A DNA stretch of 25,632 bases from an uncultured Methanosarcinales archaeon (GCA_964562875.1 CAZLVM010000001.1:1-25632), one strand, 5' to 3'; shown: positions 5,209 to 25,632, counted from the first letter of the stretch. A program made the numbers and translations. Notes: a model not told the origin generated them from the sequence alone.

Positions 5209-5298
5209 GTGCTCGTAGCCTAGCCTGGATAAGGCGTTAGCCTCCTACCATTTTTGGAAGAAAGCTAAAAATCCGGGGTTCGAATCCCCGCGGGCACG
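5209..5298 (+). tRNA. trnR: tRNA-Arg(CCU) with a 15-nt intron at the canonical 37/38 position (5248-5262)
   Basis: GTGCTCG TA GCCT AGCCTGGATA AGGC G TTAGC CT-CCT-A [CCATTTTTGGAAGAA] A GCTAA AAATC CGGGG TTCGAAT CCCCG CGGGCAC G. Mature length 75 nt, G discriminator, no CCA. Confidence 0.93.
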
Positions 5299-5400
5299 TT
5301 AGTGGCTGCGGCCTTCCAAACTTTGTTTGGATTTGCCGCGGGCACGTTAGTGGCTAAGGCTTTTTGAACTTTGTTCAAATTTGCCGCGGGCACGTTAGTG
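5288..5400 (+). repeat. Tandem 48-bp units: three copies of CCGCGGGCACGTTAGTG (tRNA 3' end plus trailer) separated by hairpin cassettes
   Basis: Copies start at 5288, 5336 and 5384. Hairpins TCCAAAC-TTT-GTTTGGA (5315-5331) and TTTGAAC-TTT-GTTCAAA (5363-5379). Confidence 0.95.
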
Positions 5401-22916: not shown

Positions 22917-24346
22917 TGGAAAAGGTTGAGCTTGAGAAAGAGAGCGAATTTGTTTGGAAAATTCCAAAAACTGGCTCTATGAATGTTCCTGCAGTAGTTT
23001 ATGCTTCTGACAAGCTTATGGAAAACATAAAGCAGGATTTGACTCTTCAGCAGATAAGGAATGTGGCGTGCCTTAAGGGAATACAGAAGAATGCTATTGC
23101 GCTTCCTGACTCCCACCAGGGATATGGGTTTAACATAGGCGGTGTAGCTGCCTTTGACATGAACGAAGGAGTGATTTCTCCAGGCGGAGTTGGCTATGAC
23201 ATCAACTGCGGAGTAAGGATGCTCAGGACTGACATGACTGCAGATGAGCTTTTGAAAAAAAAGAATGAAATTATTGAGGAGTTGTTCAAGGAGATACCTG
23301 CAGGTGTTGGAAAGGGCGGTTCTACAAAGTTAACAAAGGATAGTCTTATGGAAGCTCTTGAAAAAGGTCCTGAGTGGGCTCTCAAGGAAGGCTATGGTAA
23401 AAAAGAAGACTTGGAAAGAACAGAAGAAGATGGAAGAATGAAGGACGCTGATCCTTCAAAGGTTTCCCAGAGGGCAATTGCAAGGGGAATGCCTCAGCTG
23501 GGGACATTGGGAGCTGGAAATCATTTTATTGAGCTTCAGAAAGTTGACAAAATCTATGACGAGAAAGTTGCAAAGGCGTTTGGCATAGAAAAGGAAGGCC
23601 AGGTTACAATGATGATTCACTGCGGAAGCAGGGGCTTGGGCCATCAGGTTGCTTCTGATTATATTCAGTCAATGGAAAACAAGTTTGGCATAGAAGGCCT
23701 GCCTGACAGGGAGCTAATCAACGCTCCAATACAATCAGATCTTGGTCAGGATTATTACAAGGCAATGTGCTGTGCAATAAATTATGCTTTTGCAAACAGG
23801 CATTTGATAATGCACTGGGCAAGGGAAAGCTTTGAAAAAATATTTGGTTCTTCAGATGGCATGGACATGATATATGATGTCTGTCATAACATTGCAAAGT
23901 TTGAGAATCATGAGATTGACGGCAAGAAAACAAAGGTTTGCATTCATAGAAAGGGCGCAACAAGAAGCTTTGGCCCTGGAAGGGAAGAAATTCCTGATGT
24001 TTATAGAAATGTTGGCCAGCCTGTCATAATTCCCGGAAGCATGGGCACTGCATCATACCTTCTTGTAGGTACAAAAAAGGCAGAGGAGCTTTCGTTTGGA
24101 AGCACTGCTCACGGCGCAGGAAGGCTGTTGTCAAGGCATGCTGCAATGAGATTAAAGAGGGGAGAGCAGGTTAAGAAAGACCTTGAGGCAAAGGGAATTA
24201 CTGTCAAGGGAGCATCAATGAAAGGCCTTGCAGAGGAAATGCCTGAAGCCTACAAGGATATTGATGAGGTTGTTCGTGTTTCTGACTCTCTTGGTCTTGC
24301 AAAAAAAGTGGCAAGAGTTGTTCCTTTAGAAGTAATCAAGGGTTAA
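22916..24346 (+). CDS. rtcB: tRNA-splicing ligase RtcB
   Basis: PDSHQGYGF, GYDINCG, GAGNHFIE, HCGSRGLGH, DVCHNIAK, HRKGATR, STAHGAGR. TAATG coupling to archease. Confidence 0.98.
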   Translation: MEKVELEKESEFVWKIPKTGSMNVPAVVYASDKLMENIKQDLTLQQIRNVACLKGIQKNAIALPDSHQGYGFNIGGVAAFDMNEGVISPGGVGYDINCGVRMLRTDMTADELLKKKNEIIEELFKEIPAGVGKGGSTKLTKDSLMEALEKGPEWALKEGYGKKEDLERTEEDGRMKDADPSKVSQRAIARGMPQLGTLGAGNHFIELQKVDKIYDEKVAKAFGIEKEGQVTMMIHCGSRGLGHQVASDYIQSMENKFGIEGLPDRELINAPIQSDLGQDYYKAMCCAINYAFANRHLIMHWARESFEKIFGSSDGMDMIYDVCHNIAKFENHEIDGKKTKVCIHRKGATRSFGPGREEIPDVYRNVGQPVIIPGSMGTASYLLVGTKKAEELSFGSTAHGAGRLLSRHAAMRLKRGEQVKKDLEAKGITVKGASMKGLAEEMPEAYKDIDEVVRVSDSLGLAKKVARVVPLEVIKG

Positions 24347-24945
24347 ATCTCAATAATTTTTCCTTTCTTTCCAACATTGATGACTTTTGTTTTCCCAATC
24401 TTTTCTTCAATGCCTTCTGCTTCATGAACATGGGAGCAGAGCATTATGTCCGGCTTAAACTTGTCAATAGCCTTTCTTATGCCTTCTGAACCTGGAAAGA
24501 ATGATGTGAACTTTTCCATCTTTGTTCCTGTTGGATGCACGTGAGTTACCATTATTGTCTTTTTTGCTTTCTTTACTCCTTTGTATCCCTGTTCTATCAG
24601 CTTGAAAATTTCATCTTCGCTCAGCTGGAACAAGCCTATGTTTGCGCCGCCAGCTCCAAAAAGACCGACATCGCCTGCCATTATTGAGTATCCATGCAGG
24701 TTTGTTGCGCCGTAAAGCTCTGCAAGAAAGTCTGCTGTTGCAACAGTCTCATGGTTTCCTGGAATCAGAACTACTTTTTCTCCTAGCTTTACGAAAGGTC
24801 CGATTATTCCTGCTGTAGAAGCTTCTGCCATTGTCAGGTCTCCGCAAAGGACAACTAAGTCAACCTTTTCCTTCTTTGCCCGTTCTGCCAGTTTCTTGGC
24901 AAGGCCTGTATCGCCGTGTATATCTCCGGCTGCAAGTATTTTCAT
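24343..24945 (-). CDS. Calcineurin-like metallophosphoesterase
   Basis: GDIHGD, CGDL, PGNHE, VTHVHP, CSHVHE, VINVG. ATG 24945 with upstream AGGTG RBS preferred over the GTG at 24954. Confidence 0.92.
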   Translation of the reverse strand: MKILAAGDIHGDTGLAKKLAERAKKEKVDLVVLCGDLTMAEASTAGIIGPFVKLGEKVVLIPGNHETVATADFLAELYGATNLHGYSIMAGDVGLFGAGGANIGLFQLSEDEIFKLIEQGYKGVKKAKKTIMVTHVHPTGTKMEKFTSFFPGSEGIRKAIDKFKPDIMLCSHVHEAEGIEEKIGKTKVINVGKKGKIIEI

Positions 24946-25019
24946 TTTATGCACCTTTGCAGATGGAGGCTTTCAAAATTCCTGATTTTGAATTGTCGCC
25001 GGCTGCAAGTATTTTCATT
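24926..25019. repeat. 21-bp direct repeat (24926-24946 and 24999-25019) of the phosphoesterase start, flanking a hairpin cassette
   Basis: CCGGCTGCAAGTATTTTCATT occurs twice, 73 bp apart. Internal hairpin TTCAAAAT-TCCTG-ATTTTGAA at 24972-24992. Confidence 0.9.
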
Positions 25020-25092
25020 GTAAGAAATCATAAGGAATATGCCTTTAAAAAGCTTTGCGGTAAACTAAGAATTAAATTACCTTAATTTAAGG

Positions 25093-25248
25093 CATTGCCA
25101 CCAAGCGAAGAATAGCCAATGCTGCCAAGCGAAGTACTGTCTTTAAACATTAATTTCTGCGTGTGACTCCTTTTTAGAATAAATAACACCATTAACACGG
25201 AGCGCAGAATTGGCTAAAAAAAGAACAAAAACACAGAGCGTGGCAATG
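25093..25248. repeat. Outer shell of the dispersed element, enclosing copy C
   Basis: CATTGCCAC-CAAGCGAAG at 25093-25110 and AGC-GTGGCAATG at 25237-25248. Confidence 0.85.
25114..25215. repeat. Dispersed stem-closed element, copy C
   Basis: 11/12-bp inverted repeat AGCCAATGCTGC / GCAGAATTGGCT around a 78-nt interior CAAGCGAAGTAC...GTGTGACTCCTTT...CACGGAGC. Confidence 0.9.
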
Positions 25249-25250
25249 GC

Positions 25251-25632
25251 TTACCTTGCCTTAACCCTTACTTCTTCGCCTTCGAGATGGACAATTGTTG
25301 AGGGCTTTCCTTTTTTTTCTCCCTCGTAAATTGCAAAGTCAATATTTGCTTTTAGGTCATGGTGCAAATCATCAACAGATGTCATGTTGTTTCCGCCGGT
25401 TTTGTTTGCTGATGTTGTGACAATTGGAATATTAAGCTCTTCAGCAACTTTTGAGAACCAGTGTTCTGGAATTCTTATCCCCACGCTGTCCATGCCCATG
25501 TTTACCTGCTTTGCAATAGCGCTTTTATTTTTCAGTTTCATGATGAGTGTGTATGGTCCTGGAAGTTTTTCAATCCATTCTTCTGCATCTTCTGTCATCT
25601 CGCAGTTTTCCCTAATCCACTCTTTGGAAGGC
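25251..25632 (-). CDS. tsaC: L-threonylcarbamoyladenylate synthase, YrdC/TsaC type (5' part outside the window)
   Basis: LPGPYTLI, SVGIRIP, PIVTTSAN, GKPSTIV. The protein ends right after the YrdC domain, with no Sua5 C-terminal extension. Confidence 0.92.
   Translation of the reverse strand, partial: PSKEWIRENCEMTEDAEEWIEKLPGPYTLIMKLKNKSAIAKQVNMGMDSVGIRIPEHWFSKVAEELNIPIVTTSANKTGGNNMTSVDDLHHDLKANIDFAIYEGEKKGKPSTIVHLEGEEVRVKAR

Follow-up and report, generated by a model that had tools for sequence, protein, structure and literature searches.

The start of a metallophosphoesterase gene has been duplicated, together with a short structured insert, in the window analyzed here, a stretch of 25,632 nucleotides that forms contig 1 of an 871-kb metagenome-assembled genome (MAG) in 176 contigs (genome G000). 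Judging from sequence comparisons, the arrangement is probably a start-duplicating cassette that was born locally, is heritable and variable in copy number, and leaves the gene expressed through a relay upstream open reading frame (uORF) that begins at the old start and ends beside the new one.

Anatomy of the duplicated start

The metallophosphoesterase gene (24343..24945, minus strand) opens at ATG 24945 and encodes a PF00149 protein of 200 amino acids, which is only weakly similar to the YfcE family. A gene for RtcB adjoins the locus. An orthologue of the phosphoesterase is present in 41 of the 41 related genomes searched, and a metagenome scan for its relatives returned none above 80% protein identity. 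Directly 5' of the phosphoesterase promoter, the window also contains nested inverted repeats (25085-25255; TAAGCCATTGCCAC ... GTGGCAATGCCTTA, plus an inner pair) that look like a MITE-like family, with relatives on contigs C18, C155, C77, C107, C16, C24, and C68.

All of the features of the duplicated start lie on the minus strand. A TATA-like box, TTTTTAAA (25044..25051), contains a TTTAAA that begins at -31 from ATG 25018. At that ATG, which is the predicted ancestral leaderless start position, begins a decoy copy of codons 1 to 8 (MKILAAGD), here called X-up (24995..25018). X-up opens a 23-codon putative pass-through uORF, MKILAAGDNSKSGILKASICKGA (24947..25018), which extends from ATG 25018 to the TAA at 24949-24947 and leaves 1 nt before ATG 24945. 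The initial annotation had described just such a 23-amino-acid leader ORF repeating the first eight residues of the phosphoesterase, and it is indeed present. Within the uORF, a repeat search and folds identified a small hairpin, H1 (24972..24992), which is made up of TTCAAAAT, the loop CAGGA, and ATTTTGAA. It is followed by an anti-segment, CCTCCATCTGCAA (24957..24969), an imperfect inverted copy of codons 4 to 8 that forms the 5' arm of a second hairpin, H2, and by a Shine-Dalgarno (SD)-like AGGTG (24952..24956) at -11 to -7 from ATG 24945. The real start, X-down (24922..24945), contains codons 1 to 8, of which codons 4 to 8 (24935-24924) form the 3' arm of H2. In folds, the AUG and SD motif of the real start are within or beside the H2 loop.

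As a direct repeat, the duplication joins 24923-24949 to 24996-25022, with 25 of 27 positions identical, a perfect 21-nt core, and a start-to-start distance of 73 nt; the two differences between X-up and X-down in the window are both synonymous. The 73-nt unit, which is not a multiple of 3, consists of 24 nt of duplicated start and a 49-nt cassette. Between the copies are an 8-bp hairpin, a CCTCCA motif, a segment complementary to the repeat (CTCC..CTGCAA against the repeat's TTGCAG..GGAG), and AGGTG, and on the plus strand the hairpin is preceded by GGCT and followed by TTG. The 21-bp duplication around an 8-bp hairpin in a GGCT/TTG frame is therefore as first described, and so are the partial complementarity of the insert to the duplicated sequence and its supply of AGGTG. 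Moreover, a scan for close direct repeats (25- to 150-nt spacing) placed this exact 21-nt repeat among the longest in the genome. The 5' arm of H1, taken with the AAT that precedes it, looks like a third, partial copy of the gene start, which pairs within H1 with its own inverted copy. In another frame, a 29-codon ORF (MISYNEN...; 24942-25031, minus strand) also reaches the real start, with an ATGA overlap, and is probably untranslated because its ATG precedes the predicted transcription start.

The two start codons have different geometries. Across G000, the positions of TATA-like hexamers relative to start codons peak sharply at -30 (exactly -30 in 61 genes), SD-like 4-mers peak at -14 to -10, and the two start types are nearly exclusive, as evidenced by their co-occurrence in only 12 of 627 ORFs. 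By this standard, ATG 25018, with TTTAAA at -31, has leaderless geometry, and ATG 24945, with AGGTG at -11, has SD geometry. The promoter comparison relies on two genomes of the same family, G004 and G009, which carry the empty allele that the initial annotation had proposed to look for in relatives. The 40 nt before ATG 25018 are identical at 32 (G004) and 31 (G009) positions to the promoters of these cassette-less orthologues, vs just 23 to 24 of the 40 nt before ATG 24945. Since the promoter and X-up match the promoter and start in G004 and G009, a 73-nt insertion lies after codon 8 in the window relative to these two genomes, and the same comparison indicates that the gene was rescued by its duplicated start. 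Aligned in this way, ATG 25018 is the orthologous, predicted leaderless, ancestral start position of the gene.

Carriers, reading frame, and the probable passage of ribosomes

In nine other Nanoarchaeota assemblies, the orthologous gene carries a homologous cassette at this codon. Four of these carriers (L063, L071, L041, and L075) were found among 100 orthologous loci; pattern scans then added L110, L111, L112, and L114 from GTDB species genomes and L119 from 401 genomes of the order, among which the pattern used matched 3 (<1%). Because it occupies the same codon in nine divergent lineages, the cassette appears to be old and heritable rather than a fresh random insertion. An alignment revealed a common order: AAY/AGC, a 6- to 8-bp hairpin, (A)AGCCTCCA, the complement of codons 4 to 8, and an SD-like motif, the last of which is found in every out-of-frame cassette. 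Units are 66 to 75 nt long. The window, L114, and L119 have one unit each, L111 and L112 have two in tandem, and L110 has three, although this last count is approximate because L110 is a short-read MAG with a scaffolding artifact nearby (an N run bordered by duplicated sequence, some 250 nt ahead of the array in JAYENX010000008). A search with the N-terminal 70 residues for more in-frame proteins gave no matches.

Two side observations concern other loci. L064 (1420-1500) contains a truncated relative of the cassette, where a 12-codon uORF starts from the leaderless position; its first codons (ATGAAAATC) are the 5' arm of a hairpin, which is followed by CCGCAAAGGTG and the real ATG. The L114 and L115 contigs belong to Methanosarcinales MAG records, encode Nanoarchaeota-type orthologues, and are probably misbinned; the L115 protein is identical to that of the metagenome locus L105.

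The lengths of the units divide the carriers in two. In the five lineages without a downstream ATG (L075, L111, L112, L114, and L119), units of 66, 72, 72, 75, and 75 nt all preserve the frame, and the proteins begin with N-terminal repeats of LKILAAGD plus 14 to 17 residues; in L119, the duplicated ATG is now ATA and the frame is kept. In the five lineages with a downstream ATG, units are 70, 71, 73, 74, and 74 nt, all out of frame. Here, five of five uORFs remain open as far as position -4 or +1 relative to the main start, ending in a TAA-A-ATG junction in the window and L110 and in an ATGA overlap in L063, L071, and L041, and these uORFs cross the CCTCCA motif in three different frames. We infer from this split that ribosomes cross the cassette. 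In archaea, translational coupling requires overlaps or very short gaps between genes (PMC10666635), and for this reason, the stop-start spacing seen here fits termination-reinitiation.

These observations are consistent with the following scheme. Transcription would begin at the old leaderless site, so that ribosomes load on AUG 25018 and translate the mini-ORF of 23 codons, passing H1 and then the 5' arm of H2 and thereby unfolding the hairpin that holds the real start. They would then terminate at the UAA, 1 nt before AUG 24945, where either the terminating ribosomes or new ones recruited via AGGUG would start the enzyme. The net mode would be translational coupling that combines termination-reinitiation with RNA unfolding, and in lineages without a downstream start codon, the in-frame unit would simply be read through. 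Translational coupling, which had been suggested as a possible consequence of the insertion, is the most plausible predicted route of continued expression.

RNA structure, peptide constraint, and the probable origin of the cassette

Comparative analysis of the RNA points to two helices that are maintained. H1 is the sole consensus helix recovered with RNAalifold and has compensatory changes in six of seven pairs. For H2, the duplex between anti-segment and X-down averages -16.7 kcal/mol, vs -7.9 +/- 0.7 kcal/mol for shuffled anti-segments, and an anti-segment prefers its own X-down over those of other lineages (permutation p = 0.001). Between the two L111 cassettes, there are two compensatory double changes and one mismatch repair, and the second anti-segment makes 11 of 11 pairs with the copy downstream of it. 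Likewise, in L112 and L114, whose proteins are 93% identical, the anti-segments vary in step with synonymous changes in X-down. Folding of the window mRNA from the first AUG produced both hairpins: the 5' AUG has a pairing probability of 0.04, the second AUG sits in a 13-nt loop, codons 4 to 8 pair with a probability of 0.66, and the SD motif pairs with a probability of about 0.5. When X-up and X-down are identical, the anti-segment pairs about equally well with either copy, and so the masked state is just one of two conformers. In-frame lineages, which need no reinitiation, retain H2 in an even stronger form, an indication that its upkeep goes beyond coupling alone. A search of Rfam at gathering and permissive thresholds returned tRNAs and two chance-level matches only.

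Constraint also acts on the decoy. Neighboring X copies differ by 36 synonymous and 2 nonsynonymous codon changes, when about 24% of random single-base changes would be synonymous, and their differences are distributed 6/3/27 over the three codon positions. The constraint on X-up extends to the out-of-frame lineages, where it heads a peptide of 22 to 25 amino acids. At silent sites, X-up diverges faster than X-down, and hence it is the peptide, rather than the nucleotide sequence, that is constrained. An ORF that ribosomes merely passed through would not be expected to show such amino acid constraint in X-up. Selection on early elongation in the uORF, a functional peptide, and occasional conversion of the decoy to the real start are possible causes.

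One rival reading goes further and makes the cassette an adaptive translational switch, in which X-up and X-down compete for the one anti-segment, and translation of the uORF, a stalled ribosome, or a bound factor sets how far the real start is exposed. The cassette would then be a selected cis-regulatory decoy start, with a peptide-constrained copy of X gating translation of the phosphoesterase from a leaderless mRNA. Such a switch would be akin to the erm and cat leader-peptide attenuators, which use a leader ORF, alternative helices that mask a start or SD motif, and regulated ribosome stalling. Several features fit: folding predicts two helices that exclude each other, of which L009, L063, and L110 form structure A and L071 and L075 form structure B, the architecture has been kept over deep divergence despite easy loss through its repeats, the anti-segment coevolves with X-down, and the N terminus of the uORF is under amino acid constraint. 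Measured against the attenuators, the cassette offers the predicted alternative helices A and B, an SD motif that pairs with a probability of about 0.5, and coevolution of the X-down helix only. Against the switch, pairing between an anti-segment and its own X-up is not lineage specific (p = 0.16), fewer than 1% of the sampled genomes of the order carry the cassette by the pattern used, the nearest relatives manage without it, the hairpins are kept in in-frame lineages that have no restart at all, and neither a ligand nor a stall motif was identified. We therefore regard both the switch and the gated decoy start as tentative proposals that are unlikely to be correct.

The preferred reading, a locally born cassette, draws on the composition of the insert. 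Over their first 10 nt, the inserts agree with the gene start at 55 of 90 positions, vs 34.6 +/- 3.7 for shuffled sequences, and over its last 10 to 14 nt, the cassette resembles the sequence that precedes X-up in L071 (with AGGTG), L111, L112, L114, and L119. When cassette and promoter were compared as a diverged tandem copy, in-register identity exceeded that of shuffles in just three of nine lineages (window p = 0.006). A module built from direct and inverted pieces of X was most likely born locally by duplication and template switching, and we consider this origin, judged on composition, most likely in preference to insertion of a foreign element. Template switching during replication can create hairpins and can keep their stems perfect without selection (PMC8794818). 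After its birth, the cassette would have been inherited, expanded to two or three copies, and lost by recombination between the repeats.

The descent of the cassette is complicated. On a poorly resolved gene tree, carriers take at least five positions, and their nearest neighbors lack the cassette; L065 is sister to L071, and L075, L112, and L114 form a supported clade. Similarity between cassettes is discordant with similarity between proteins (Mantel r = 0.13, p = 0.23), such that L071 and L110, for instance, share 89% of the cassette and 66% of the protein. Given this discordance, descent may not have been purely vertical. One old gain with repeated, repeat-mediated losses would be the simplest account of the distribution, and lateral spread is a possible one.

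The same patchiness, discordance, and empty alleles could be expected of a mobile element in one class with cassettes at a tRNA-Arg gene in the window; the initial annotation had proposed a micro-insertion that duplicates about 20 bp of its target. The shared framing is not random: of 3,079 perfect 7-bp hairpins in the genome, 9 have a GGCY prefix and 39 have a TTG suffix, and the 3 with both, vs 0.11 expected, are the phosphoesterase hairpin and the two tRNA-Arg cassettes. Further repeat-cassette-repeat structures are found at tRNA-like 3' ends in G000. What stands of the proposal is a start-duplicating insertion that leaves the gene intact; it is not fresh, and no sign of membership in a dispersed class was seen, with a single locus in each of the five carrier genomes tested. 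BLAST of the unit found no second locus in G000 (best E = 0.12) or in the four other carrier genomes, G041 to G044, and a peptide-level scan of G000 revealed no start-duplicating uORF beside that of the phosphoesterase. The insertion always affects the same gene at the same codon, and the duplicated stretch has no fixed length, ranging from 24 to about 35 nt between lineages. Nor does the cassette look imported, since its parts appear to derive from the gene start (a partial third direct copy, with which it opens, and inverted copies), and a traveling element could not bring an anti-segment that fits the local gene start. Unlike a MITE or transposon, it lacks terminal inverted repeats, a duplication of fixed length, an arbitrary target, and multiple copies. 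Rickettsia palindromic elements are dispersed palindromic repeats inserted in frame into many genes; the in-frame forms of this cassette, in contrast, are confined to the phosphoesterase gene. A mobile element is accordingly an improbable source.

Another reading assigns the function to the product, with the decoy peptide (MKILAAGD-N...) or the in-frame extension mimicking the first beta-strand of the enzyme and acting on the enzyme or a partner. The excess of synonymous differences between X copies would favor it, as would the retention of the peptide while silent sites of X-up diverge faster. However, past the decoy copy, the uORF uses three reading frames, and so just 8 to 9 residues are conserved. 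Also, AlphaFold2 predicts disorder for the first 42 residues of the L114 protein, an in-frame form, including the decoy strand (pLDDT of <50, vs >90 for the enzyme), on which basis a structural role for the decoy strand was rejected, and no homologous peptide family was found for the decoy peptide. A functional peptide thus seems quite improbable.

It is still less credible that the cassette is removed or skipped, either as an intron or by ribosomes that bypass it from the upstream GAC to the downstream GAT, so that X-up is the true N terminus. Archaeal bulge-helix-bulge introns have two 3-nt bulges separated by a 4-bp helix that joins the splice sites, and bypassing in T4 gene 60 uses matched take-off and landing codons, with a stop after take-off and no independent downstream start. 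Removal or skipping would account for the amino acid constraint on X-up, a hairpin lies immediately after the candidate take-off codon, the candidate landing site has an SD-like motif ahead of it, and RtcB is encoded next door. Yet X-down is equally constrained and, unlike the downstream part of gene 60, has its own SD motif and ATG; no stop codon comes right after the take-off GAC (24997-24995); and in L063, GAY codons lie within the gap. Folds of five lineages contained no bulge-helix-bulge joining equivalent positions of the copies, and the in-frame lineages require neither mechanism.

Finally, a chance repeat or an assembly artifact can be dismissed for practical purposes: a perfect 21-nt core equals a common assembler k-mer size and the MAG is fragmented, but covariation and maintenance of the reading frame accompany the repeat, and the recurrence of the architecture in nine independent assemblies from different projects effectively refutes an artifact. 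Other candidates were also set aside, namely, +1 frameshifting, which was rejected on anatomy, and off-target CRISPR spacer integration and att-site remnants, which were dropped because the would-be "spacer" shows conservation and the would-be "repeat" is simply the start of the gene.

Known systems, related cassettes, and significance

The closest published analogue of the phosphoesterase cassette is the mycobacterial MIRU (Supply et al. 1997). MIRUs are described as units of 46 to 101 bp, often in tandem and in variable number, that lie at start codons, where the stop of a small ORF is coupled to the start of the displaced gene at -4 spacing and expression is preserved; they are spread across numerous loci within a genome and are considered mobile (PMC12548453). 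The phosphoesterase cassette shares the small ORF that abuts a start and the variable tandem units. Unlike a MIRU, it is found at one gene, at one codon conserved across lineages; it duplicates eight codons, holds an inverted copy of the gene start, is archaeal, and resides on a predicted leaderless mRNA. Because the dispersal that defines MIRUs is not seen in the five carrier genomes tested, it is not a member of that family.

Other parallels are partial. Like coupled archaeal genes (Huber et al. 2019, 2023; PMC10666635), the cassette places a stop and a start 1 nt apart, with ATGA in three other lineages. RNA-unfolding and reinitiation models of coupling have been reviewed (PMC12548453), and the cassette resembles the former in that the start region is in a hairpin whose 5' arm sits inside the upstream ORF. 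Known coupling joins two real genes; in the cassette, a decoy derived from the start of the gene itself takes the place of the upstream gene, and the coupling is predicted. Similarly, the 5'-uAUG mRNAs of Escherichia coli have a 5'-terminal leaderless AUG and a downstream SD-led start, and their 5' uORF can affect the downstream cistron (PMC4965119); unlike the phosphoesterase uORF, those uORFs are unrelated to the main ORF and are not built by duplication. Hairpins made by template switching (Monttinen and Loytynoja 2022, PMC8794818) likewise contain reverse-complement copies of neighboring sequence, and multibase "compensatory" changes keep their stems perfect, as in the L111 cassettes and between L112 and L114. 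That work concerns RNA genes; in the present case, the template would be a coding start, the product adds direct repeats and a restart site, and the mechanism is inferred. A literature search found no archaeal description of a start-duplicating cassette of this kind.

Elsewhere in G000, other repeated cassettes were observed. At 5209-5400 of the window, ARAGORN calls an intron-containing tRNA Gly(tcc), which by hand is a tRNA-Arg(CCT); its 3' end, CCGCGGGCACGTTAGTG, occurs three times at 48-nt spacing, and the intervening hairpins differ by three compensatory pairs. On the plus strand, the order of these tRNA-Arg cassettes (repeat, inverted partner, GGCYTT-hairpin-TTG, and repeat) is that of the phosphoesterase cassette. 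A second family, of about 67 to 74 nt, is present at C44:5815-5921, C43:5530-5652, and C78:4531-4680. It has a ACCATGGCAAGCCATGGT palindrome, a CACCTCC motif, and a covarying GATTT..AAATC hairpin and is flanked by 20- to 28-nt direct repeats that resemble the T-arm/acceptor 3' ends of tRNAs, with no tRNA called there by ARAGORN. Also, at C83:2940-3095, a 46-nt unit that includes a GGCTTTGCTTC..GAAGCAAAAC hairpin occurs in four tandem copies, and this array ends at a TTTTTAAA box ahead of a gene start.

The cassette has practical consequences for genome analysis. Annotation pipelines may miscall the start of such a gene or overlook the mini-ORF, and short-read MAGs may collapse tandem copies of the cassette.

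For archaeal biology, the phosphoesterase locus suggests that a leaderless gene can outlast, over a long evolutionary span, a structured insert directly behind its start, with the old start turned into a mini-ORF and the new one led by an SD motif. The frame split over ten lineages offers a rare, purely comparative argument for ribosome entry at the old start, and it raises the question of termination-reinitiation on leaderless DPANN mRNAs. Further questions are whether template switching can build and maintain such a module and why amino acid selection persists on a decoy start. If the decoy-start device is real, it would add a new form of translational control to those of archaea, fashioned from a gene's own start.
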